Shown here one piece after another: positions 2,114 through 52,352 of a stretch of 64,000 bases of DNA. The translations under genes and the position numbers were made by a program. Position 1 is the first letter of the stretch. Each line of letters starts with the position of its first letter. The notes under the pieces are model-generated. The model made no database searches and was not told the origin of the DNA. It saw only the letters and a list, made by a program, of their open reading frames with translations. Where the stretch lies: positions 9,671-73,670 of the forward strand of contig CAZGEO010000001.1 of the NCBI GenBank assembly GCA_964525295.1, read 5' to 3'. The DNA comes from an uncultured Candidatus Saccharibacteria bacterium. Its GTDB lineage: Bacteria; Patescibacteriota; Dojkabacteria; GCA-002793355.

Positions 2114-4035
2114 TTTTGATAGGTTAGTTCAAAATTAGCGAATTCCGGCGTTGATAACGTATCCGACGTAAATAAGACGCGATATTGGAAGTAGCGATTA
2201 TTATTGAGCTGTGCAGGTAATGTCATTATCTGCTGGGAAGTAAAATAGGTGTTTGACGTACCATCAGCCCCAATCCAACTTGCTCCATTCAATGTTGCCG
2301 TATTACTTGCTCTTACTTGAATTCTGACTGTAGCAGAAGCAGGAATTGTTCCACCCCAATCGAGTGAATAATACTGTGTCGTTGCTGAATTTGTATCAAA
2401 TATTCTTGAAATATATTCTCCTTCATTGGCATACCCTTGCCCTTGTGAATTGCCCCCACCCGGCCCACCCCTAATAATTCTCAATTCAGTTGATGCTTCA
2501 CTTGTAACAATGTATGAATAAGCATTTCCGTTAGTTTCTATCATCGAAAATACCGCATTCGGTGGTTGAGGTAAAGCTAAACCGCCACAATATACTGGCT
2601 TTGTTTCATTGTCGAGCGAAACAACTTGATATTGCTCAGAACCACCCGAACCAACTACGATTACTCGATTAGCGCCTTCTGGTGCAGTTATATCAATAGG
2701 CGCCATACCTTTGGTATCATAGCTACTGAAGGGATATTTTGTACCTGTTTTACTTGTCACATCAACAATAAAAAGCTCTGGTTGAGTTACAGAAACGGTA
2801 GTTCCCACATAAGCACGCGTTTCAGCTTCATTTACGTAAACAGTTTTTGCAGATTGCGTGTTAAGATCAATTTTACCAATGCTTCGCATCGATGAAGGGT
2901 TCGACAAATCAATGATTTCAAGTTCGGTTACCGAGTTACTTAATGCGATGTAAGCATAATTACCTCGAGCGAACATGTCTACAACTGTTCCTTGAAGGTT
3001 AATATACGATATGACAGGCCTTGCGCCAGTTTTCGCTGAAAGATTAAATGAATATAATCGAGTATCAGTAGCAACAAAACCTGTTGAGCCGTTGACGTAA
3101 ATACCTCTCCCTTGCGAATTTACCGATGGATTGAAATAGCCAATTTCAGTGTAAGGTGATGTTGCCATATTAACAATAACGACTTCTTTACTGTTCGTTT
3201 GTGTAGCTAAATAGCCATAATTGCTTTCAGCAAAAATGGCATTCGTTTTATATCCATCAAAAGTTCCCAACGATGATACAACAGGCGGTTCAACGGGTGT
3301 GAATGATAAGCGCGCAAAAGAAACACCAGAAGCGTTTGAGCCTGTTCCCATATATATATTCCCTTGAGTAACATATAGTGATTTCGCAATACCTTGACCA
3401 GGCAGATCATGAGTAGTTTGCGTTAACCCAGGTTTACACCAATCTGCAAAGAGTACTGGCGCCAAAACTACTTCTCCGCCGGCATTATTTCTTACCAGTG
3501 TTGAATTGTTAGTACCTGTTTCAAAATCAGCTACAGAAGTTTGAGACAAACGCAAAGTTGCCCAGTCACTCACGTAGGTAACCGTAGAGATTTCATTTGG
3601 AAGTCCTAAAAAGTCAATCCAGCTAGCAAGAAGTAAGACACTTCGAGTATGAGTATCTAAAGTACCGCCTGAAGTTACAATATTACCGTTAGTATCACGA
3701 TAAACATCCGTAATTGTTGTTGAAAGTGTCACACCATTTTTTGTTATTGATCCAGGGGTAAATTGATACTTACCTTCGTTATACGTTAAGTGGATTGGTC
3801 CAATTCCAGTATTAGAAATAATTGCACCCCACAAATTATCTTTGTTTTGAATGAGTGCATTGCTCATCTCTTGCAAATATTGGCTTGCTACAATCCGTTC
3901 TGATGAATTCTTTGTTGCACGAACAGCATCATTAGCAAGTACTCCAACTGAAGTAATGAGCATCGTAAATAAAGCCATACTGAGAAGAATTTCTGCAAGA
4001 CTAAAACCTTTAAATCGTAAACGAGTATTTTTCAT
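2110..4035 (-). CDS. Large minor pilin with prepilin N-terminus (641 aa), possible tip adhesin
   Basis: N-terminus KGFSLAEILLSMALF is a canonical G^F..E prepilin motif. It is followed by a ~600-aa Ser/Thr/Gly-rich extracellular domain. Confidence 0.7.
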   Translation of the reverse strand: MKNTRLRFKGFSLAEILLSMALFTMLITSVGVLANDAVRATKNSSERIVASQYLQEMSNALIQNKDNLWGAIISNTGIGPIHLTYNEGKYQFTPGSITKNGVTLSTTITDVYRDTNGNIVTSGGTLDTHTRSVLLLASWIDFLGLPNEISTVTYVSDWATLRLSQTSVADFETGTNNSTLVRNNAGGEVVLAPVLFADWCKPGLTQTTHDLPGQGIAKSLYVTQGNIYMGTGSNASGVSFARLSFTPVEPPVVSSLGTFDGYKTNAIFAESNYGYLATQTNSKEVVIVNMATSPYTEIGYFNPSVNSQGRGIYVNGSTGFVATDTRLYSFNLSAKTGARPVISYINLQGTVVDMFARGNYAYIALSNSVTELEIIDLSNPSSMRSIGKIDLNTQSAKTVYVNEAETRAYVGTTVSVTQPELFIVDVTSKTGTKYPFSSYDTKGMAPIDITAPEGANRVIVVGSGGSEQYQVVSLDNETKPVYCGGLALPQPPNAVFSMIETNGNAYSYIVTSEASTELRIIRGGPGGGNSQGQGYANEGEYISRIFDTNSATTQYYSLDWGGTIPASATVRIQVRASNTATLNGASWIGADGTSNTYFTSQQIMTLPAQLNNNRYFQYRVLFTSDTLSTPEFANFELTYQK

Positions 4036-4475
4036 TGCGGGTAATAAGAAATCATCCCTTCTGAATTAATTTCTACACGATATGTTTTTTGTGAATCGGT
4101 TACCGACACATAGCCGAAGGCATTGGGTCGAAACGCACCAGCAGAAAAAACCACTTCATTGCCAGAACTTAGTGCGATATTACTGATCCTAATTGGCTGA
4201 CTCACCGGAATTGTATCTGAAGCTTCAGCTTGTGCTAAACTAGCACCTCGGAAGGCAACTATTCTATCTGAAAAGAAAGCGACTCCATATGGTTTATCTA
4301 AATTCCCTGAGTATGCTTCTTGTTGTTGCCTGAATATTTCATAAGAAATCTCTTTTGCCTCTGCATCGGCGCGTTTCTGATTTATCAATCGAAGAGAATA
4401 TGGAAACATCAGCATTACTAAAAGAGAAAAAATTCCAAGAACGATTAATGTTTCAAAAAGGCTTGCTGCTTTCAT
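4032..4475 (-). CDS. Pseudopilin-like protein
   Basis: N-terminus SLFETLIVLGIFSLL is prepilin-like (Glu plus hydrophobic helix). Overlapping starts and stops place it in the operon. Confidence 0.55.
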   Translation of the reverse strand: MKAASLFETLIVLGIFSLLVMLMFPYSLRLINQKRADAEAKEISYEIFRQQQEAYSGNLDKPYGVAFFSDRIVAFRGASLAQAEASDTIPVSQPIRISNIALSSGNEVVFSAGAFRPNAFGYVSVTDSQKTYRVEINSEGMISYYPQ

Positions 4476-5549
4476 TTAATCATTAATCGCAGAAGTTAAT
4501 GAATAAATTGGTCCGACAATAATAACAGCCAAAAGACCAATCATTAGCCCAATAAATATCAAAAGAATAGGTTCAATTAATGCAGCCATGTTGTTGGTTA
4601 ATTCTTGCAATTCCTCTGAATAGAAGCCATGCAGATAGCGTAAGTTTTCTTCAAGTGACCCACTAGACTCACCAAGCTCAACTAATTGAATAAATGTTGC
4701 AGGGAAATATTTTTTATAATCACGCAAACAAGCAGCAAAACTCTTGCCACCTTCAACTTCAGTTGCAATCTTTTTCATCATTTCGTTATAGATAACATTG
4801 GACGTCGTGTCGGCAGTAATTTTAATTGCTCTCACCAACGGAATACCATTCGACATCAGTATACCTATTGTTCTCGCAATCGAAGTCAAAATATTTAAGC
4901 GAACAACATTCTTAATGACAGGAAAGTGCAGTGAGATAACACTCACCGTTCGTTTTCCATGTTTCGTCTTAACGTATATTGCAATAAGAATCCCTAATAG
5001 AATGACCCCTAACAACAACCAATACCAATTTGTGCGAACGAAAGTAGTAATATTCATGATTAAGATCACATAGGCCGGAATATTTTTAAAGGTCAAAAAG
5101 AGCTTTTCCATCTTAGGTAAGATAAAGAAAATAACTCCAGACATTTCGACTGCTGTCAGAAAGAAAACAATCATTGGATAGAGTAGTGCTCCATTAATTT
5201 TTTTCTGAAGGTCGTTTTTCTTCTTCAAATAATCAGCCAAAAAGAGTAAATTCTGATCTAATCCACCACCTTGCTCACCAACCTCAATAATTGAAACGAC
5301 AATAGGGGAGAAAACCTTAGGGAATTTCCTCATCGATTCAGCGAGACTCACACCTTTTTGAATACTTTCATGAATGACCCCGAAAACTTTACGAAGAAGT
5401 GGATCTTCTGACTGTTCTGTCATAATTTTGATTGTATTATCGAGGCTAATTCCTGAGCGAAGCATGACAGAAATATGGCGAATCGCCATTGCAACACTTA
5501 TCTCAGAAATCGATTCGCCAAACCCCAACTTAAACTCCTTTTTTTCCAT
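4476..5549 (-). CDS. pilC: Type IV pilus / type II secretion platform protein (PilC/GspF/ComGB family)
   Basis: Two GspF-type repeats and three TM segments. It sits directly after the ATPase gene. Confidence 0.85.
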   Translation of the reverse strand: MEKKEFKLGFGESISEISVAMAIRHISVMLRSGISLDNTIKIMTEQSEDPLLRKVFGVIHESIQKGVSLAESMRKFPKVFSPIVVSIIEVGEQGGGLDQNLLFLADYLKKKNDLQKKINGALLYPMIVFFLTAVEMSGVIFFILPKMEKLFLTFKNIPAYVILIMNITTFVRTNWYWLLLGVILLGILIAIYVKTKHGKRTVSVISLHFPVIKNVVRLNILTSIARTIGILMSNGIPLVRAIKITADTTSNVIYNEMMKKIATEVEGGKSFAACLRDYKKYFPATFIQLVELGESSGSLEENLRYLHGFYSEELQELTNNMAALIEPILLIFIGLMIGLLAVIIVGPIYSLTSAIND

Positions 5550-5551
5550 AG

Positions 5552-6799
5552 TTATTCCCTCATTGTAGTAACTCTCATTAATTCTGGAAAATCAATTAAT
5601 CCAGCCTTCAACTTATCAACCCCTGCTTCTACAATTAATCGTAGCCCTTGCTTACGAGCCTTCGCGAAGATATCATCAACAGTTGATTTTTCAGAAATCA
5701 TCCTGCGCAAGTCTTCATTAATTTCAAGAATTTCATACAAACCGACTCTACCTTTGTATCCAGTATTGCTACACGCCTCACACCCATTCTTCTGGAATAA
5801 AGCTTCTCCTGCGGTAAATGTATCTGAAATATCAGGTCTAGTCTTAGCAATATGACTAAGTTCTGCTGTCGTTAACTTGTACTTTTGTTTGCATTTCTCA
5901 CATAGACGACGACACAATCTTTGCGCAATAATGACATTTACCGTTGAAGCAACGAGATAAGGCTCAACCTCCATGTCAATTAATCGAGGAATAGTTGTTA
6001 CCGAATCATTGGTATGTAACGTAGATAACACTAAGTGTCCCGTCATTGCAGCGTTAACAGCAATTTTGGCAGTTTCAGTATCTCGAATTTCACCTACCAT
6101 AACAATGTCAGGGTCTTGGCGCAAAATTGCTCTTAATCCAGTTGCAAAGGTCATGTTTGCCTTTGTGTTGACCTGTATGTGATTAACGCCATCAATATCA
6201 TATTCTACGGGATCTTCAATGGTAGTTATGTTACGTTCTCTGGAATTTAGAATCTTCAAAATAGTATAAAGTGTTGTCGTTTTCCCCGAACCAGTTGGCC
6301 CAACCGCCAAAATCATACCATATGGTTTATTGTAACTTTTATTAACTTTTTCGAGATCTTCACCAACGATACCAAGTTCTTCAAGCGTTAAACTCTTGCC
6401 TTGCTGCGCAAGTAATCGAATAACTACTTTCTCACCTTTAGTTGTTGGAATAATAGAAATACGAGCGTCTATGACGCCATTATCGTTCGTAAAGCGGATC
6501 TTCCCGTCTTGTGGGGCAAAATGCTCATCTGTTCTGATTTGCGCTTCAACTTTAATTTTGAAAAGTAATGCTTCTTCAACAATTTTGTCGAACAAATAAA
6601 CTTCGCGCAGTAATCCATCGACACGGTATCTAACAACCAAACGGTGTTCGGTCGGCTCTATATGAATATCAGAAGCTTTTGCCTCATAAGCTTTGAAAAT
6701 AAGTGTTTCCAGTAGATTGCCAACATCTTGCGTATTAATACTTGCTGCGATTGTTTCATCAAGATTCTGATTTTGTGGAGCTTCAGTAGATATATTCAT
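5552..6799 (-). CDS. pilB: Type IV pilus assembly ATPase (PilB/GspE/ComGA family, short form)
   Basis: Walker A GPTGSGKTTTL, Asp box, His box and a tetracysteine motif CxxC...CxxC. At 415 aa it lacks a long N-terminal domain. Confidence 0.9.
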   Translation of the reverse strand: MNISTEAPQNQNLDETIAASINTQDVGNLLETLIFKAYEAKASDIHIEPTEHRLVVRYRVDGLLREVYLFDKIVEEALLFKIKVEAQIRTDEHFAPQDGKIRFTNDNGVIDARISIIPTTKGEKVVIRLLAQQGKSLTLEELGIVGEDLEKVNKSYNKPYGMILAVGPTGSGKTTTLYTILKILNSRERNITTIEDPVEYDIDGVNHIQVNTKANMTFATGLRAILRQDPDIVMVGEIRDTETAKIAVNAAMTGHLVLSTLHTNDSVTTIPRLIDMEVEPYLVASTVNVIIAQRLCRRLCEKCKQKYKLTTAELSHIAKTRPDISDTFTAGEALFQKNGCEACSNTGYKGRVGLYEILEINEDLRRMISEKSTVDDIFAKARKQGLRLIVEAGVDKLKAGLIDFPELMRVTTMRE

Positions 6800-6853
6800 A
6801 AGATAGAGCAGTCAATTTTTATCATTGTAGCAGATTAGCAAATTCAGTACAGC

Positions 6854-6880
6854 AAAAAAAAAGGGGGCCAAAGCCCCCTT
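6854..6880 (-). terminator. Rho-independent terminator between the pilin and pilB genes
   Basis: On the minus strand this reads GGGGGCTTTGGCCCCC followed by T9. It lies immediately 3' of the pilin gene. Confidence 0.75.
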
Positions 6881-6901
6881 TCGAATTAACCGCAACGCAG
6901 G

Positions 6902-7381
6902 TTATTTTCTAACTACAATGCTTTTGTTATCTTCTGCATTTGGCGCGCTAACTTCGACGCGGTTACCTGCAGTTTTGCAGATATCGTAGCCTGTATCAGC
7001 TGCTGTTCCTGCTGCAACAGTTCCACCTGGGTCACGAGGAATATCTGCGATATAAGTGTCAACCAACAAGGTGTAAAGGTTAATAGCTCCAGCTGCTGGG
7101 GTTGGGGTTCCTGAACCTGTGTAGCCAGCAATAGGTGCTGTGGTTGGGCAGATTGGAATTGAACCAAAATCAGCTAATGACTTTCCTGGTTCTGAGGCAT
7201 ATTGCCAAATTGCATTAAGAATTTGCTGCACGTCAGCGCTTCGCTGTGTATTTCGTGTAGCCATGAAGTTTCGTGCTGGGTTAATAGCGACGATAGTAAT
7301 CGCGGCTAAAATTGCGATCAAGCCGACGACAACAAGGATTTCGATTAAGGTGAAACCCTTAAGTGATGCCCGTTTCTGCAT
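6902..7381 (-). CDS. Major type IV pilin
   Basis: N-terminus KGFTLIEILVVVGLIAILAAI is the canonical prepilin methylation motif (G^FTLIE). The protein is 159 aa. Confidence 0.9.
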   Translation of the reverse strand: MQKRASLKGFTLIEILVVVGLIAILAAITIVAINPARNFMATRNTQRSADVQQILNAIWQYASEPGKSLADFGSIPICPTTAPIAGYTGSGTPTPAAGAINLYTLLVDTYIADIPRDPGGTVAAGTAADTGYDICKTAGNRVEVSAPNAEDNKSIVVRK

Positions 7382-7415
7382 GGGACAGATTATTTTTAAT
7401 TTATACTTTCGGTAC

Positions 7416-7444
7416 TAGTATATGGTAGGTAATTAGAAATGTCA
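7416..7444 (-). promoter_or_regulatory. Predicted sigma70-type promoter of the pilin gene
   Basis: On the minus strand: TTGACA, 17-nt spacer, TATACT. It lies about 35 nt upstream of the pilin ATG. Confidence 0.45.
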
Positions 7445-7517
7445 ACTAAATAATTTGCAATTCTCAATTCCCAATTTTCAATTAATGCGAAATTGCAAAT
7501 CTTGGAGCACATTCACG

Positions 7518-7620
7518 CTTTAGTACTTTAATCCTTTAGTGCTTTAGCGCTTTACTGCTTTAGTTCTTTAGCGCTTTCGTGCTTTACTGCTTTAGTACTT
7601 TAGTGCTTTACTGCTTTACG
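7518..7620. repeat. Tandem array of 13 copies of an 8-bp unit CTTTANNN (consensus CTTTAGTG)
   Basis: Direct reading gives ctttagta ctttaatc ctttagtg ctttagcg ctttactg ... ctttacg. The array ends 12 bp before the exonuclease ATG. Confidence 0.9.
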
Positions 7621-7632
7621 TTATACTACCCA

Positions 7633-8412
7633 ATGTCTCGCATTATTGTCGATGGTCACAATCTTTTATTCAAATCCTTTGCTGTGCCTTTCAAATTCAC
7701 TTCTTCAAAAGGAACACCCCTACACGTTGTCAGTACATATCTAAAATATTTACGGCTACTCAGTACAAATTATTCGCCAGATGAGTTTTTCGTCGTCTTC
7801 GATACTGAAACCTCAAATACCAATAAAGAGTTATCAAGTACCTATAAAGCAAACAGGGTCAATAACTATCCAGACCAAGAGTCTCCCTTTATTCACCTTC
7901 CAATAATCAAGCGAGTGCTCGAGTTCTGCAACATTGCAACAATTGATGCAATAAATTACGAGGCTGACGATGTGATTGCGACACTTACTGAACGAGCAAA
8001 TACTCAAACTTACATCTGCTCAACCGACACAGACTTCTTCCAACTTCTTTCGCAAAGAGTAAGTATTTTAAAGTTTAAACCTCGAATGATTATCGAAGAG
8101 ATAACGCCCGAAAAACTGTCAACTAATCTTGGCATTTCACCGCAAGATTATGTATTCTTCAAATCACTAACCGGTGATACTGCAGACAATATCAAGGGCA
8201 TCCCAGGAGTAGGGAAAGTCAGGGCAAAATCGATACTTGAAGGAAAATTGTCAATCAATCTTGACGAATATCGTGATCTCATTGAACTAAACAAACAACT
8301 CATCACGCTAGACCGAAATGTGCCCTTACCAGAGGCTGCATTTCAGTCAACGTTTTCTGACACAAAATTGCATTTATCGAACCGAGAAATCTGGACAGCA
8401 TTAGAGTTCTAA
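7633..8412 (+). CDS. Stand-alone 5'-3' exonuclease (FEN/Pol I N-terminal-like, PIN plus H3TH)
   Basis: N-terminal IVDGHNLLFKSF and H3TH motif LTGDTADNIKGIPGVGKVRAKSIL. The ORF-track start at 7579 lies inside the repeat array, so the ATG at 7633 is preferred. Confidence 0.8.
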   Translation: MSRIIVDGHNLLFKSFAVPFKFTSSKGTPLHVVSTYLKYLRLLSTNYSPDEFFVVFDTETSNTNKELSSTYKANRVNNYPDQESPFIHLPIIKRVLEFCNIATIDAINYEADDVIATLTERANTQTYICSTDTDFFQLLSQRVSILKFKPRMIIEEITPEKLSTNLGISPQDYVFFKSLTGDTADNIKGIPGVGKVRAKSILEGKLSINLDEYRDLIELNKQLITLDRNVPLPEAAFQSTFSDTKLHLSNREIWTALEF

Positions 8413-8478
8413 ATCAAGAAACACCACACTCGATTTTATACAATTGCTAATTGATCATTTTTAATTGATAATTGATCT

Positions 8479-9150
8479 ATGCGATTAGCACTCTACAGCA
8501 GCGGTTTACATCATGCCGATAAAACTATCGATGAGGCAGTTTGGCAACTTCTTCATAAGCCCACCCACCCACGCCTTTTATTACTCGTAGCTTCGCCAGA
8601 CGCCTTCAATTTCGTTTCCCCAGCTTTTACAAACTATTTACACGACTTCTGTTCACCAGAATATCAAGTCATTTTACCTACTTCTGAAAATCGAGACGCA
8701 ACGATTAACGCAATAGAGCAGAGTGACCTCATTTTTCTTTCAGGCGGAAATACCTACAATTTTCTAAACAATTTGAGAAACCTGCAACTAATTGATGCAG
8801 TAAAGAAGGCAGCACACACAAAAGTTATTGCTGGCTCAAGCGCCGGTGCGATACTTATGACGCCTAGCATAGAAATTGCCGGATATCCCGTTGAAGATGC
8901 AGATTCAAATGATTGCGGTGTGACCGATTTTTCTGCACTTAGTTTGGTTAAATTTGAGATTACTCCCCACTACGTGGCTTCTGAAGCTATAGATAAGCAA
9001 TTTCGCGAATATTCTATGAAGAGTGGCAGGCCTTTGTATGCACTCGCCGATGGAACAGGCATTATTGTTGAGGGCAATAAGGATCAATTATTCGGAAACA
9101 TTTTGATGTTCGACCACGGTGAAAAAATTAAAGTACAATGTTCATTATGA
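8479..9150 (+). CDS. Peptidase S51 family (dipeptidase E / cyanophycinase-like)
   Basis: FLSGGNTYNFL motif and catalytic Ser motif IAGSSAGAIL. Confidence 0.7.
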   Translation: MRLALYSSGLHHADKTIDEAVWQLLHKPTHPRLLLLVASPDAFNFVSPAFTNYLHDFCSPEYQVILPTSENRDATINAIEQSDLIFLSGGNTYNFLNNLRNLQLIDAVKKAAHTKVIAGSSAGAILMTPSIEIAGYPVEDADSNDCGVTDFSALSLVKFEITPHYVASEAIDKQFREYSMKSGRPLYALADGTGIIVEGNKDQLFGNILMFDHGEKIKVQCSL

Positions 9151-9548
9151 GAAGATTCACGACGCCAGACAATAATGACCAGACACCTTCACGCAAAGAG
9201 TTAGGCGAACCGCTTGATATAGTGATTGAACCAGAAAATTTCACTGCATCAATAACAGAACTCGTCCTACAAAATATGAAAAAAGAAGTAAAACAAGATC
9301 AAGAACTGCCAGATTTTAAAATTGACTACATTACTGCAGTAACTGAAGCGTATGAAAATTCTCCGGAAGTGTTACTAAATTTCGACATTTTTGTACCAAC
9401 AGCAAATTTGAGGCAACCTGCTCTTTGTTGGGGGAATGTATTTTCACATGAAGTTCATGATCTAGAACTCGAAGGTGAAGCATATACGGTCCCCGATACA
9501 CTCGACAACCTCATCCGGAATATCGCACGATCTGCAAATCGCAAATAA
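9138..9548 (+). CDS. Hypothetical protein
   Basis: 136-aa ORF overlapping the stop of the S51 peptidase gene. No recognisable motifs. Confidence 0.35.
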   Translation: MFIMRRFTTPDNNDQTPSRKELGEPLDIVIEPENFTASITELVLQNMKKEVKQDQELPDFKIDYITAVTEAYENSPEVLLNFDIFVPTANLRQPALCWGNVFSHEVHDLELEGEAYTVPDTLDNLIRNIARSANRK

Positions 9549-9634
9549 TTACTCAAAAAGATTCGTGACCATCTTCTTACTGTGAGACAACAAAAAATAT
9601 AGTATTAACGACTACAATCAGATATACTGTATGC

Positions 9635-11296
9635 ATGGAAGTAGACATTCTTTTAAAGGAAACACTTGGCCTTTCTGATTTTCAAATACTCGTCTATACG
9701 ACATTATTAGAAAGACAATCAACAGCTGGGCAACTAATAAAGAGATTAAATATTAATCGTGCCACTTTGTATCGAGTACTTGATGAGTTGGTAGAGTTGA
9801 ATCTTCTCATAAAAAAGCAAAGTGGCACCAGAATGATTTTTGAAGCAATGCACCCAGATGCGCTACTCGAAATGTTCAAGAGAAAACGCATTGCATTTGA
9901 AGAGAAATCTTTTGCACTTGAAAGGGTCGTGCATGAATTGATAAACAAAGCAAAAACTCAGCCTACTGATGCCTCTATCAGCATTGAAAAGGGTGTTATG
10001 GCACATTATCGCTCAATGAAATTGCAACTAACCTGCAAAGAAAAGATTATTCGTCAGAAGATAAGTAATGACAGTTCAATTTATTCTTATAAGAACTATC
10101 CAGAAACTGGAGATTACTTGAAATTCATGCATAAATACATGGCAGAGTGCGTTAGACTTGGTATTCACACGCATATCCTTGTTTCACTGAAGATTCCCGC
10201 AAGTATCAGTTCTTATAACGTCACCGATCCGACCTACAACCATATCTCAAAAGCTTTGCCAGAAGAAATATTTCCCAATATTAGTTTCAGAATATTCGAT
10301 GAGTACGTAATTTTCAGTATCAGAGATAAAAATCCAGAAGATAATACAATCATAACGATTCGTAACAGAACTACGGCTGATTTTTTGAAGTCGATGTTTG
10401 ATTTTATTTTTGACAGATCAATCTTGATTTACAAAGAAAAACCCATTGAAACGATAAAAACGAAGGAGCATGAAGTACTTTCAAAGATTGGCATGGGCAC
10501 AGCAGGCGTAGGTGGGTTTTGGAATGCAAGGCACCCTTTTAGTAATGATATTAGTGACCTTGATCAAATGCGTTTTTCACTGAGCAAAGGTATCAATTAT
10601 ATTGATAACTGCCTTATGTACGCCGAAGGCCACGCTACAGAACTTGTTGGTAGGGCAATCAAGAATTTTCCCAGAAAATCTCTCTTTATCAATGGCAAAT
10701 TAACCAGAGTAGGCGGCAAACTGGTTTCGAATGCGAAAGAGATTGAAACACAGTGTAATCAGTATTTAAAAAGCCTCGGAACAGATTATCTCGACGTCAT
10801 GCAGATTCACAGTCCAGGGTCACTCGCAATACCAGAAGAAGAAGTCGTGCAAAAATTCGAAGATCTCATCAGCGCAGGTAAAATACGTTATTGGGGCGTC
10901 AGCAACTATAATAAATCGCAATTAGTAAAAATTCAAAACTACACTAAGTATCCAATTTTCTGCAATGAAGTTCCGTTTGGCGTTTACGCAAGAGAATACG
11001 AAAAAGACGGGACTCTTGATTACATGAGAGCGCAAAATATTCTTACAATCTCATATTTCAGTATACTCAAAGGTGTATTAGGAATTAATCAATTTCTTGA
11101 TACAGAACACCCATTGGTAAGAATTGCAACTAAATACCGAAAAACACCCGCTCAAGTTGCAATAAATTGGGTTCTTTCACATCCATTTACTATTGCCATA
11201 ATTAAGGCAACGAACGGGACGCACATAAATGAAAATATCGGAGCACTTGGGTGGGAATTGGAGAAAGAAGATTTAGAAATGATTACTGGACTTTGA
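9635..11296 (+). CDS. Fusion protein: TrmB-like wHTH transcriptional regulator domain plus aldo/keto reductase domain
   Basis: The N-terminus DFQILVYTTLLERQSTAGQLIKRLNINRATLYRVLDELVELNLL is TrmB-type. The C-terminal ~270 aa carry the AKR catalytic tetrad context IDNCLMYAEG, INGK, MQIHSP and YWGVSNY. Confidence 0.7.
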   Translation: MEVDILLKETLGLSDFQILVYTTLLERQSTAGQLIKRLNINRATLYRVLDELVELNLLIKKQSGTRMIFEAMHPDALLEMFKRKRIAFEEKSFALERVVHELINKAKTQPTDASISIEKGVMAHYRSMKLQLTCKEKIIRQKISNDSSIYSYKNYPETGDYLKFMHKYMAECVRLGIHTHILVSLKIPASISSYNVTDPTYNHISKALPEEIFPNISFRIFDEYVIFSIRDKNPEDNTIITIRNRTTADFLKSMFDFIFDRSILIYKEKPIETIKTKEHEVLSKIGMGTAGVGGFWNARHPFSNDISDLDQMRFSLSKGINYIDNCLMYAEGHATELVGRAIKNFPRKSLFINGKLTRVGGKLVSNAKEIETQCNQYLKSLGTDYLDVMQIHSPGSLAIPEEEVVQKFEDLISAGKIRYWGVSNYNKSQLVKIQNYTKYPIFCNEVPFGVYAREYEKDGTLDYMRAQNILTISYFSILKGVLGINQFLDTEHPLVRIATKYRKTPAQVAINWVLSHPFTIAIIKATNGTHINENIGALGWELEKEDLEMITGL

Positions 11297-13468: not shown

Positions 13469-14956
13469 ATGCAAGAACAATATCTCTATCTTGGTGACAC
13501 AGAAGTTTTTAATGGTCATTATTTGCTCGCCGTTTTCAAATTAGTTCCCTATGGCGACATCACAATCGAAGATGCTGCCTCAGAAGTTGCCGCTGAATCA
13601 TCAACAGGTTCCAATCTAAAAGTCGGCACACGTACCAATTACTCAATGGGTATCGATGCACGAGTCTACAAAATTGATAAAGAAAATCAACTTGCATACA
13701 TCGCGTACCCTTGGTCTATGTTTGATAGGGGAGGAAATGTACAAAATATTTTGACTTTCATTGCCGGTAACGTATTCGGCATGTCAGAATTGAAAGAATG
13801 TAAACTTCTTGATGTTTGGTTTCCATCGCAAATGCTCGATCAATACGACGGCCCAAGCGTAACACTCGATGATATGCGAGAATATCTAAACAATTATGAT
13901 CGTCCTGTATTAGGAACCATTATTAAACCAAAAATTGGCTTAACTTCAACAGAATATGCTGAAGTATGTTACGATTTCTGGGTAGGAGGTGGCGACTTTG
14001 TTAAAAATGACGAACCACAAGCTGACCAAGTTTTCTCTCCTTTTGAAAAAATGGTTGATTCCGTTCGAGAAGCAATGGATAGGGCCGAAGAAGTAACCGG
14101 CCACACGAAAATACACTCGTTTAATGTTTCGGCTGCTGATTTTGACACTATGCTTAAACGAGGTGATTACATTTCATCTGTTATGAAACCTGGAAGTTAC
14201 GCATTCCTTGTTGACGGCATTACCGCTGGCTGGAGTGCTGTACAAACAATTAGACGCCATTTTCCTCATGTATTCTTACATTACCACCGAGCTGGACACG
14301 GAGCATTTACTCGAGCCGAAAATCCAATTGGATACTCGGTACTTGTTCTCTCAAAGTTCGCGCGCTTAGCTGGCGCTTCAGGAATTCATACTGGTACAGC
14401 AGGTATCGGTAAAATGGCAGGAGACGCAAAAGATGACATTACGGCAGCGCACGCAATATTGAAGCTCAAGTCAAAAGGTCATTACTTTGATCAGGTTTGG
14501 TCTGAAATTCCAGAAAACGATTTTGATATTGTTGCTGCAATTGAAAAAGAAGCAGCATTATGGGGTAAAGGTGCCCATGGTATCGCTATGTCACGATTAC
14601 GCGGTCTAGATATGACTATGCAGCGAAAAATGTCTTGGAGAACAATAAATAAAACCGCACCAATTATTTCTGGTGGGTTGAATCCTGTACTTTTGCCAGA
14701 GTTCCTTGATACTATCGGTACAATCGACTTCATAACGACTATGGGTGGTGGTGTACACTCACATCCAAGTGGAACAAAAGCTGGAGCTACCGCTGTCTGC
14801 CAAGCATATGATGCCTGGAAACAGGAAGTAAAACTTGAAGAATATGCAAAAGAACATAAGGAACTTGATGAAGCAATCAAATTCTTCAATAAGCACGGTA
14901 CACAGGCCCACAGAGTAGACAATTCAGAAGTCTATAAGGTTGACAAGCCTGCATAA
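13469..14956 (+). CDS. rbcL: Ribulose-1,5-bisphosphate carboxylase/oxygenase large-subunit homologue (form II/III or III-like)
   Basis: Motifs KPKIGLT, GGGDFVKNDE (Lys/Asp/Glu active site), HYHRAGHGA and SGGLN...GGGVHSHP match the RuBisCO catalytic signature. No small-subunit gene is present. Confidence 0.8.
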   Translation: MQEQYLYLGDTEVFNGHYLLAVFKLVPYGDITIEDAASEVAAESSTGSNLKVGTRTNYSMGIDARVYKIDKENQLAYIAYPWSMFDRGGNVQNILTFIAGNVFGMSELKECKLLDVWFPSQMLDQYDGPSVTLDDMREYLNNYDRPVLGTIIKPKIGLTSTEYAEVCYDFWVGGGDFVKNDEPQADQVFSPFEKMVDSVREAMDRAEEVTGHTKIHSFNVSAADFDTMLKRGDYISSVMKPGSYAFLVDGITAGWSAVQTIRRHFPHVFLHYHRAGHGAFTRAENPIGYSVLVLSKFARLAGASGIHTGTAGIGKMAGDAKDDITAAHAILKLKSKGHYFDQVWSEIPENDFDIVAAIEKEAALWGKGAHGIAMSRLRGLDMTMQRKMSWRTINKTAPIISGGLNPVLLPEFLDTIGTIDFITTMGGGVHSHPSGTKAGATAVCQAYDAWKQEVKLEEYAKEHKELDEAIKFFNKHGTQAHRVDNSEVYKVDKPA

Positions 14957-18974: not shown

Positions 18975-19047
18975 GGGCAGTTAGCTCAGCTGGTAGAGCA
19001 CGTCATTGACATTGACGTGGTCATAGGTTCGAGTCCTATACTGCCCA
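18975..19047 (+). tRNA. tRNA-Val (anticodon GAC)
   Basis: Cloverleaf by hand: acceptor GGGCAGT/ACTGCCC, D-arm GCTCAGCTGGTAGAGC, anticodon stem CGTCA/TGACG with loop TTGACAT, T-arm ATAGGTTCGAGTCCTAT, discriminator A. CCA is not encoded. Confidence 0.9.
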
Positions 19048-19048
19048 T

Positions 19049-19095
19049 GGGTGTTTGGCAATCTCGCAGAGGTTGGCAGACACCCATTTTGTTAC
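19049..19095 (+). terminator. Hairpin plus U-tract after tRNA-Val
   Basis: GGGTGT...ACACCC stem followed by ATTTTGTT. Confidence 0.4.
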
Positions 19096-19128
19096 ATAGG
19101 CGATGAACCCAATATTACGAAGTAAGAT

Positions 19129-19182
19129 TGAAGGTTCGAGTCCTATTCCGAGTTTACGAGGAATATGGAATATACTGCCCCT
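19129..19182 (+). repeat. Interrupted duplicate of the tRNA-Val 3' end (pseudo-att remnant)
   Basis: aggttcgagtcctat matches the tRNA T-arm exactly (15/15). After a ~25-bp insertion comes atatactgccc, repeating the acceptor 3' strand. A third copy tatactgccca lies at 19282-19292. Confidence 0.7.
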
Positions 19183-19446
19183 ATTTTTATAACGAAGTGG
19201 CAACAGTACTTTTGAATACACTTATAATGTCGAGAACCTATGCTGCGAAGCAGTAATAGGTAAGAGGCCTAAAGCATAGCTTTACAAAGTATACTGCCCA
19301 TTCAATATCAGTCTCATAGCTTCCCTGAATTATGACATCAATACCCTAAACCAATAACTTTTAGTACTTCAGCACATTAATAATTTATCGCTCTACTGCT
19401 TTAATGCTTTATTTTTCCCGAGTTCCTGTAGTTGATTTCAATACTA

Positions 19447-19475
19447 TTGACATTGACACTGTCATAATTTATAAT
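19447..19475 (+). promoter_or_regulatory. Predicted sigma70 promoter for the small secreted protein gene and glycan cluster
   Basis: TTGACA, 17-nt spacer, TATAAT, about 28 nt upstream of the ATG at 19504. Confidence 0.5.
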
Positions 19476-31620: not shown

Positions 31621-31823
31621 AGGTAATCTTATCAGATTAATTACAAATTTTTAATTATCAATACTCAATTCTAAACCAAACTTTTTCCTACAAATTACAC
31701 TATTTTCCCGAATTGATAATTGAACATTACCAATTGACAATTGCCTTAGACTACAGCTTACCAACGTAAAATTGGGCAATACTTGCATTTTCTTCATTTA
31801 CTATATACAATCAAATCGTAACT

Positions 31824-32627: not shown

Positions 32628-32637
32628 ATATTAATTT

Positions 32638-32847
32638 TCAATTATCAATATTCAATTTCTTCGATGCCGTTTTAATTGATGATTGGAGTATTTTGATAAT
32701 CTGTTTTAAAACGCAATAAAAGTCAACGTATTCTTCGTTTGTTATTAGTTGCAAATCTCGAATTAAACTCAACCATGTTTCTGATTCGTAGGCTTCTTTT
32801 CTAGCTATCGCCAATTCATAAAGTCTTGAGTCACTATGCTTCATCAA
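32638..32847 (-). CDS. Small hypothetical protein
   Basis: 69-aa ORF in a gap. Coding status is uncertain. Confidence 0.25.
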   Translation of the reverse strand: MMKHSDSRLYELAIARKEAYESETWLSLIRDLQLITNEEYVDFYCVLKQIIKILQSSIKTASKKLNIDN

Positions 32848-32929
32848 TCAGAATAGCAGCACAATTATGATTAACAAAACTCAATCATTCAATTATTCAT
32901 TGAAAATTGATAATTAGTAATTAGTAATG

Positions 32930-42953: not shown

Positions 42954-43083
42954 GAGCGGGTGACGAGATTTGTATTCGAACTTCGTCTTCAGTATCAATT
43001 CGATCTACAACTCACCCTCACATTCATTCCACTCATTGGATCTCATTGTCGAACTTTCGTTCTCATCTCGTACATAGCAAAAG
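42954..43083. repeat. R1 repeat copy A: degenerate tRNA-Gly 3'-end fragment plus conserved 33-bp core
   Basis: gcgggtgacgagattt matches the 3' end of the tRNA-Gly at 52227. The core cattgtcgaactttcgttctcatctcgtacata (43044-43076) is identical to 51272-51304. Confidence 0.7.
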
Positions 43084-43149
43084 TGGAATGATAATGAGAT
43101 AGTCTCTCATTACATGTATAATAATTCAGGTTACTAAATATTAAAAACG

Positions 43150-43572: not shown

Positions 43573-43680
43573 CTTACTTGTATTGTCCGAACCACAATAA
43601 TTTTGTCTCTCAATTCCTGATGTGCTCGTTTTATTGTTATTTCTAAGACTATCAAGTGTTTTTGTACATCGTTTGCGATA

Positions 43681-43737
43681 TATCGTCTAAGATGTATATG
43701 AGCGGGGCACTAGATGAAGTCCGAACCGCACTTAGTA
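43681..43737. repeat. Repeat copy B: duplicate of the tRNA-Gly downstream flank (R3) plus R2 module
   Basis: tatcgtctaagatgtatatgagcggg matches tatcgtctacgatgtatataagcggg at 52207. agcggggcactagatgaagtccgaaccgcacttagta matches 51351-51387. Confidence 0.7.
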
Positions 43738-44005
43738 CAGGTGCCTCACTTTTCATCGATAATTTTAATACTCTTAACTAATTTTGATTATAATATAAAC
43801 ATGAAATTTACGCATGGGAAAAGTGGAATGATTACGAGATCATCTTCATTTAACTGGATTAGTTGGTTGGTCTCTTTTGCCTTTTTACCAATTAATTTTT
43901 TACTTATACTATTGGGTATTTGCCTACACTTAAAAAAGTAATTATTCTAAAAAACACATAAATAGTGGGTAGTACGTATTATGGCTACCCACTATGCTTT
44001 TAACG

Positions 44006-51080: not shown

Positions 51081-51190
51081 CACAAAATTGGAGCTATGCC
51101 AATTATTGACACAATAAAAATATGGGAAGATATATATCAGGCGATTTATAAAGATAATTCGAATACTTCATTATCGTAAACGATATATAT

Positions 51191-51387
51191 GAGCGGGCGA
51201 CGAGATTTACCCACAGGGCATCAATTCAGTTTACGAATCACTTCCTCAATACTTCGTCGTTCTTCGGACTTCATTGTCGAACTTTCGTTCTCATCTCGTA
51301 CATAACAAAAGAGGGCTGCTATCCACCTTTCAGGTGAACACCAGCCCTCAAGCGGGGCACTGGAGGAAGTCCGAACCGCACTTAGTA
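51191..51387. repeat. Repeat copy C: 15-nt copy of the tRNA-Gly 3' end, then R1 with 33-bp core, then R2 module
   Basis: gagcgggcgacgagatt matches tRNA-Gly 3' end plus flank. Core at 51272-51304, and R2 agcggggcactggaggaagtccgaaccgcacttagta at 51351-51387. Confidence 0.7.
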
Positions 51388-51445
51388 ATGGTACACTTAT
51401 TTATACAAAAGATCGGTACTTTCCACAATTTAATTTAAAGTAAAG

Positions 51446-52054: not shown

Positions 52055-52226
52055 TCATATTTCAGTTTAAATTGATATTCTATTTTACACTTTACAAAGA
52101 TATTTGGGAAATTGAATGAAAAACAATAGAGAAATAGTTGTCAAGTATTAAAAAGAGAACTATTGTTAATTGTGACTTTTTAAAAGAAATTTATTGTCTG
52201 AGATATATCGTCTACGATGTATATAA

Positions 52227-52299
52227 GCGGGCGACGAGATTCGAACTCGCGATCTTCTGTTTGGAAAACAGACATTCTAGCCGCTGAACTACGCCCGCA
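52227..52299 (-). tRNA. tRNA-Gly (anticodon UCC)
   Basis: Minus-strand cloverleaf: acceptor GCGGGCG/CGCCCGC, anticodon stem TCTGT/ACAGA with loop TTTCCAA, T-arm GCGAGTTCGAATCTCGT, discriminator U. Confidence 0.88.
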
Positions 52300-52352
52300 C
52301 GGTACTAATTATTAATTGATAATTTTTAATTAATAATTAATCTTACTGCATT

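Follow-up and report, generated by a model that had tools for sequence, protein, structure and literature searches.

The tandem array that lies between a type IV pilin gene and a 5′-3′ exonuclease gene in this genome raises the question of whether the number of its 8-bp units modulates the expression of either gene, or whether the array is a stretch of DNA that gains and loses units with little or no effect on its neighbors.

Structure and genomic setting of the array

The window, meaning the whole 64,000-nucleotide stretch of DNA that was analyzed, is part of a 659-kb contig, has a G+C content of 36.8%, is ~88% coding, and contains a type IV pilus cluster as well as a RuBisCO large-subunit gene (13469-14956) that is probably of form II/III, as in other CPR genomes. 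The 5′-3′ exonuclease (flap endonuclease) gene is located on the plus strand at 7633..8412 and encodes a protein of 259 amino acids matching PF02739 and PF01367. On the minus strand, a type IV pilin-like gene with an N-terminal methylation (N_methyl) motif (6902..7381) heads the pilus cluster and is followed downstream by GspE-like and GspF-like genes. These assignments bear out the placement of the array between divergent pilin and exonuclease genes that was given in the preliminary description. The closest relatives of the exonuclease among 5.8 billion proteins are no more than 48% identical, the few named ones being Doudnabacteria or Patescibacteria; no repeat was found upstream of homologs of 42-48% identity, and their gene neighborhoods differ too. 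On the strength of the named relatives, the organism is taken as probably belonging to the Patescibacteria. Further along the window, 9635-11296 encodes an unusual fusion of a TrmB-type HTH and an aldo/keto reductase.

The array occupies 7518-7621 on the plus strand and consists of 13 imperfect 8-bp units arranged head to tail in perfect register, with the consensus CTTTAGTG. Reading from 7518, units 1-7 are CTTTAGTA CTTTAATC CTTTAGTG CTTTAGCG CTTTACTG CTTTAGTT CTTTAGCG, and units 8-13, ending at 7621, are CTTTCGTG CTTTACTG CTTTAGTA CTTTAGTG CTTTACTG CTTTACGT; the exonuclease ATG follows after another 11 nt (7622-7632). Tandem Repeats Finder reported the array at 7517-7618 with a period of 8, 12.8 copies, 78% matches, and a score of 127, compared to 56 for the next best repeat in the 64-kb window. 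For a 22-mer derived from the array, 0.00 matches with up to three mismatches are expected (none in 100 shuffles), confirming the 13 tandem 8-bp copies that had been described next to the exonuclease gene as a run of short head-to-tail units beyond chance.

CTTT is present in 13/13 units and A at position 5 in 12/13, with positions 6-8 variable: of the 14 departures from the consensus in the window strain, 13 fall at positions 6-8 and one at positions 1-5. The array thus combines a fixed 8-bp period with a conserved core and a free spacer, the layout known from the arrays bound by ribbon-helix-helix (RHH) proteins. Identical adjacent units are absent, the longest exact internal repeat being 16 bp at a 24-32-bp offset, and no higher-order repeat structure was found, as identity is 75-83% at each multiple of 8. 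The core motif itself is not enriched in the window, where CTTTA occurs 104 times against ~120 expected.

An in-frame ATG at 7579, inside the array, had been suggested to place some of the repeats in coding sequence. An in-frame start is indeed found at this position, but the codon is GTG in the window and becomes ATG only in a variant strain with 11 units (contig L211, described below), where G7579A changes the in-array codon at 3303-3305 (7579-7581 of the window). Coding repeats initiated at 7579 were rejected, since homologs have no N-terminal extension, their N-termini falling within one residue of the 7633 ATG, and an independent gene call on the Logan assemblies returned the same 259-amino acid exonuclease. 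The array is therefore non-coding, and a leaderless mRNA would probably make the ATG of the variant strain irrelevant. The array is also probably untranscribed, given the promoter predictions presented below. A hairpin, cruciform, or RNA element was likewise rejected, as no single-strand structure was detected in the array (DNA fold z = 0.12) and no Rfam match was obtained at E <= 1; neither the stable or conserved structure nor the family match of a structured RNA, riboswitch, or sRNA is present in the array. The wider fold of 7446-7700 reached a modest z of -2.06, due mainly to an inverted repeat at 7453-7500.

This perfect 10-bp inverted repeat (ATTTGCAATT/AATTGCAAAT, arms 7453-7462 and 7491-7500) has 28 nt between its arms, encloses four CAATTNN heptads, and lies between the -35 hexamer of the predicted pilin promoter and the array; it is a possible candidate operator. 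Arrays of 7-bp units (CAATTNN, TAATTGA, or TATCAAT) also occur elsewhere in the window, at 7458-7485, 8442-8476, 31650-31680, 31711-31743, 32629-32657, 32881-32928, and 52306-52341, and are intergenic, beside or within promoters. The heptads at 8442-8476 spell TTGCTA-17-GATAAT 6 nt before an ATG at 8479, and those at 52306-52341 lie directly upstream of a tRNA-Gly gene. They may represent a promoter-building or protein-binding repeat family. A further set of repeats consists of tRNA-like 3′ fragments with shared flanks (43033-43093, 43668-43742, 51159-51206, 51261-51321, 51351-51392, and 52193-52240), which are found on both sides of a segment of ~8 kb carrying cupredoxin, DUF305, and FtrD-like genes and a 770-amino acid ORF. 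This segment is possibly an integrated metal-handling island beside tRNA-Gly.

Strain comparison and related arrays

Two assemblies, SRR11582162 and SRR11582163, share with the window an identical 251-nt intergenic region with 13 units, apart from one SNP outside the array in SRR11582163. A further strain was reached through the 90%-identity cluster of the exonuclease, in which member P0121 lies on contig L211 of SRR32934939, an assembly from a different study. Over 5.7 kb (window 4260-9980), L211 is 97.76% identical to the window, with 112 substitutions and a single indel. This indel removes 16 bp, exactly two units, from the pilin-side end of the array (7517..7532), leaving 11 units in SRR32934939 instead of 13. 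Three more contigs of that strain added 9 kb of comparison and no indel, so the two-unit change is the only length difference in 14.7 kb over four contigs, of which the array makes up 0.7%. The array thus shows the whole-unit length polymorphism between related genomes that characterizes VNTR loci. Copy number is not invariant among related genomes, and with two alleles known, the idea of a variable array survives this check.

The sequence of the array also changes faster than its surroundings. Between L211 and the window, the array and its junction carry 7 substitutions in 112 nt (6.25%), compared to ~2% overall and to 1 substitution in the remaining 128 nt (0.8%) of this intergenic region; by our own Poisson arithmetic, P is ~0.003 for the array with its junction and ~0.03 for the array alone, where 5 of the 88 positions shared by both strains have changed. 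Two of these five changes fall in the CTTT core (CTATAGTG and ATTTCATG, L211 against the window). This is the reverse of an array that is more conserved than its flanks, as RHH arrays are. The five promoter-proximal units together with the TATACT hexamer that follows them (7582..7627, plus strand) do not differ between the strains, where ~1 change would be expected in the five units by chance. No strain difference was seen in the inverted repeat, and the heptad arrays at 7458, 8442, and 52306 showed no length change and 0-1 substitutions, indicating that the length variability is specific to the 8-bp array.

A second, decayed array of seven in-register units (TTTTAGTA CTTCAGCA CATTAATA ATTTATCG CTCTACTG CTTTAATG CTTTATTT) is present on the plus strand at 19359..19414, upstream of a surface-protein/glycan cluster. 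All seven units have positive PWM scores, against a background in which 3.8% of 8-mers score above 0; a four-unit run at 19383-19414 scores 24.1, compared to a null maximum of 17.1, and 19390-19411 has two mismatches to a 22-mer of the main array, where none is expected in shuffles. Most of its CTTT(A) cores are damaged. No other locus in the window rose above the null, and none did in ~12 kb fetched beyond it (L208 and L209). The related array noted earlier around 19391 is thus real by both the 22-mer and the PWM, but its proposed role in a regulatory repeat family fared less well, as decay of this extent fits repeat birth and death better.

The surroundings of the second array bear traces of tRNA-Val. 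A promoter-like site read from the sequence, TTGACA-17-TATAAT (19447..19475, plus strand), lies 32 nt downstream of the array, and its -35 region duplicates a stretch of tRNA-Val: a copy of the anticodon arm at 19446-19466 provides the TTGACA. The region following tRNA-Val (18975-19475) also holds copies of its T arm (19132-19146) and of its 3′ end (19171-19182 and 19290-19301). In the other strain, contig L212 stops exactly at the end of tRNA-Val (19048), before the second array. The tRNA-Val copies and this contig end suggest old integration or excision scars, with strain-variable DNA downstream.

Similar arrays are not confined to this organism. When metagenomes were scanned for five CTTTANNN units in a row, at least 120 loci matched; among the matches listed, 95 of 133 arrays are near-perfect microsatellites, and the contigs that carry such arrays are unrelated, with 23-70% G+C, several arrays lying directly before start codons. 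Broadly similar 8-bp arrays are therefore widespread, and the majority look like ordinary slippage products. No relative of this organism was found among the matches listed, and the window array is more degenerate than all of them, with 7 distinct 3-nt tails where none of the others has more than 5. One match, L086, combines CAATTCT heptads with CTTTAACR octads, as in the window, and was set aside as generic repeat clutter; its array adjoins a possible transposase-like ORF, on a contig that is Bacteroidetes-like as judged by one promoter motif. An AT-rich unit, CTTTAGAA, forms arrays of 6-14 copies in soil-type contigs of 61-68% G+C (L097, L113, L121, L136, L149, and L150), in L121 directly before a start codon, and these arrays may constitute a separate repeat family.

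Predicted promoters and competing explanations

Promoter scanning predicted a near-consensus pilin promoter (11/12) on the minus strand at 7417..7445, with TTGACA at 7445-7440, a 17-nt spacer, and TATACT at 7422-7417. Between its -35 hexamer and the variable end of the array are 73 nt. In SRR11582163 and SRR32934939, the substitution 7420 A>G changes the -10 hexamer of this promoter from TATACT to TACACT.

On the exonuclease side, a -10-like hexamer, TATACT (7622..7627, plus strand), directly follows the array and ends 5 nt before the ATG, an arrangement that points to a promoter of the leaderless type. In this genome, -10-like hexamers show a sharp maximum 5-7 nt ahead of start codons (11/59 genes, compared to less than 1 per position elsewhere), and a Shine-Dalgarno motif precedes only 2 of 60 genes, so leaderless or Shine-Dalgarno-less initiation seems to be the rule. 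Examples of -10-like hexamers near starts are found at 9635, 12087(-), 13361(-), 30872(-), 34819(-), 36831, 57677, and 58733. Given the position of these hexamers and the scarcity of Shine-Dalgarno motifs, the exonuclease mRNA would also be leaderless, beginning at or next to 7633, and the array would then span about -12 to -115 of the predicted exonuclease promoter. A putative -35 can be read in unit 11, where TTTAGT (7599..7604, plus strand) matches TTGACA at 3/6 positions with a 17-nt spacer to TATACT, below the threshold of the promoter scan; such a weak -35 would resemble those of several other predicted leaderless promoters of this genome. No plus-strand promoter was predicted upstream of the array by the promoter scan. 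Curved DNA or an UP element was considered and rejected by reasoning, as the 8-bp period is out of helix phase and the T3A tracts are short.

On balance, we favor the reading that the array is a degenerate, promoter-associated VNTR in which any effect of unit number is nil or a small tuning, with no on/off switch. The array would have arisen, and would still change, by replication slippage or unequal exchange between 8-bp units. It would serve as the upstream DNA of the flap-endonuclease promoter, which would be weak, leaderless, of the sigma-70 type, and driven mainly by its -10, and, at the same time, as the spacer separating this promoter from that of the divergent type IV pilin gene. Because the array is flush with the -10 hexamer and each unit contains TTTAG or TTTAC, gain or loss of whole units should keep the -35/-10 spacing, so that the same kind of hexamer would stand 17 bp upstream of the exonuclease -10 whatever the unit number. 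Changes at the distal end would alter only the distance between the divergent promoters, from 223 to 207 bp as estimated from the predicted start sites, and the effect on expression is expected to be small.

Several observations argue for this reading: the whole-unit polymorphism, the raised substitution density, and the decayed sister array, the last of which is expected under a process of repeat birth and death. The lack of structure, the lack of an identified partner protein, and a geometry that spares both core promoters are consistent with it as well. Other observations count against a fully neutral VNTR. The bias of deviations toward positions 6-8 hints at constraint on the CTTTA core; by our own binomial estimate from the deviation counts, P is ~3e-5 if deviations are independent and ~0.006 by distinct change types. 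Two loci of the same unit family occur within 64 kb, both upstream of promoters and on the same strand, and the five promoter-proximal units are identical between the strains. In a genome that is 88% coding, 104 bp of inert DNA would also be somewhat unexpected.

The best surviving alternative to the VNTR reading is contingency-type tuning, which we nonetheless regard as rather unlikely. Slippage would in this case alter the spacing or helical phasing between the pilin and exonuclease promoters or a distal element, and pilin and/or exonuclease expression might, with somewhat low probability, vary among cells by analogy with nadA and hmw of pathogens. The whole-unit polymorphism between strains, as the only indel in 14.7 kb, would be expected under such tuning, and the variable end of the array is the pilin-proximal one. 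Phase variation classically affects pilins and surface glycans, and it is a surface-protein/glycan cluster that the second array precedes. Each 8-bp step would turn the helical phase by ~0.76 turn, by simple arithmetic. However, contingency loci are (near-)perfect tracts that allow frequent one-unit slippage, and the units here are 78% alike with no identical neighbors and no exact internal repeat longer than 16 bp, so that one-unit slippage would give mismatched heteroduplexes. All three near-identical assemblies, including the one with a SNP, have 13 units. The array is outside the reading frame and outside the predicted 5′ UTR, and with the promoters as predicted, unit changes leave the frame and the -35/-10 spacing of either promoter intact. 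Classical on/off mechanisms are inapplicable to the exonuclease gene, because the array abuts its predicted -10 and the change is at the far end. Of the expression modulation or phase variation that had been proposed, what stands is the difference in unit number, 13 against 11, and what does not is a switch of the exonuclease gene by spacer length or frameshift.

A protein-binding array, which we consider distinctly unlikely, would have a small dimer, for example of the ribbon-helix-helix type, bind each unit through CTTTA and polymerize along the array, repressing or insulating the divergent promoters. The fixed period, the invariant 4-5-bp core with its free 3-bp spacer, the recurrence of the motif at a second site upstream of a promoter, and the overlap with the -35 region of the predicted exonuclease promoter are what such an array would look like. 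However, Pfam scanning of 27 window proteins gave no candidate binding protein, that is, no RHH or other small DNA-binding domain, several neighbors having no Pfam match at all; no gene for a cognate protein was seen nearby, the scan yielding only the TrmB-aldo/keto-reductase fusion (9635-11296). The rapid evolution of the array relative to its surroundings, including changes at core positions in L211, also argues against binding, as do the mostly broken cores of the second array and the lack of CTTTA enrichment in the window.

An improbable but more far-reaching reading is that the array is a working tuning knob in a Patescibacteria-like episymbiont, acting through promoter distance and helical phase or through a putative protein that reads CTTTA. 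In that event, which we rate as doubtful, cells could come to differ in their expression of the pilus and/or the repair nuclease. In other organisms, flap endonucleases counteract the instability of repeats, and with a repeat at the nuclease's own promoter, nuclease level and repeat length could therefore feed back on each other. Finally, a transcribed 5′-UTR element (CUUUA repeats acting by structure or protein binding) or an 18-residue N-terminal extension from 7579 is highly improbable: the codon at 7579 is in frame and reads ATG in the 11-unit strain, and a precedent exists in the hmw repeats of H. influenzae, which are transcribed and function at the RNA level (PMC12721329), but the absence of a predicted plus-strand promoter upstream of the array, of a stable fold in the array itself (the wider z of -2.06 coming mainly from the inverted repeat), of an Rfam match, and of an extension in homologs all argue against it, as does the hydrophobic peptide that such an extension would add to a cytoplasmic nuclease.

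Comparison with known repeat systems

What the array would mean differs between these readings. As a mere slippage hot spot, it would offer a strain-typing marker for an uncultured lineage and would illustrate that even a very compact genome can retain imperfect 8-bp repeats. Should the pilin or nuclease promoter respond to unit number, this would be the first repeat-based expression variation known to us in the Candidate Phyla Radiation, where host contact and DNA uptake are attributed to type IV pili. Full-text searching for work on Patescibacteria that deals with tandem repeats, SSRs, or phase variation found none. The widespread predicted leaderless promoters, scarce Shine-Dalgarno motifs, and conserved heptad arrays that spell promoters may be of broader use for annotation than the array itself.

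Among known systems, the hmw1A and hmw2A genes of Haemophilus influenzae have upstream (ATCTTTC)n heptanucleotide repeats that are perfect and form part of the transcribed 5′ UTR, where they base-pair with a G-rich arm and undergo RNase III cleavage, with more units giving less expression (PMC12721329; PMC8262952). The array resembles these repeats in its pyrimidine-rich unit of a length not divisible by 3, in its more than 10 tandem copies directly upstream of a gene, and in the variation of unit number between strains. Unlike the hmw repeats, its units are 78% alike, it is predicted to lie upstream of the transcription start, and it forms no hairpin. In Neisseria meningitidis, nadA has a (TAAA)n tract upstream of its promoter that is perfect and flanked by defined NadR operators (PMC2791445). 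As in nadA, the array is placed upstream of a predicted core promoter, where unit changes would shift distal elements and not the -35/-10 spacer. In contrast to the nadA tract, it is imperfect and reaches right to the -10 hexamer.

The vlhA genes of Mycoplasma gallisepticum have (GAA)n repeats upstream of the promoter (PMC6258824). The array shares with vlhA a variable repeat region upstream of a promoter in a reduced genome; the vlhA repeats, unlike the array, are trinucleotide and perfect, and the genes they act on encode a family of surface lipoproteins, not a DNA-repair nuclease. The on/off behavior of vlhA is tied to exact copy number. Ribbon-helix-helix arrays are represented by the Omega heptads (WATCACW)n of pSM19035, the ParG ACTC-N4 boxes of TP228 parH, and the 8-bp met boxes of MetJ. 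With these the array has in common a 7-8-bp period, a short core with a free spacer, many contiguous copies, and promoter overlap. The Omega, ParG, and MetJ arrays are conserved and adjoin the gene for their own binding protein, whereas this array is the fastest-changing stretch in the strain comparison.

The array would, by analogy, work most like the upstream tracts of hmw, nadA, and vlhA, yet it lacks the two contingency-locus features examined, a (near-)perfect tract and unit changes that alter frame or promoter spacing. Nothing essential separates it from generic prokaryotic VNTR and SSR loci (PSSRdb, PMC3013739), with which it shares short tandem units, an intergenic position, whole-unit polymorphism, and decay by point mutation; its 8-bp unit lies outside the usual 1-6-bp catalogs, and its host is an uncultured, probably Patescibacteria lineage. 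By definition, the array is a polymorphic SSR/VNTR.
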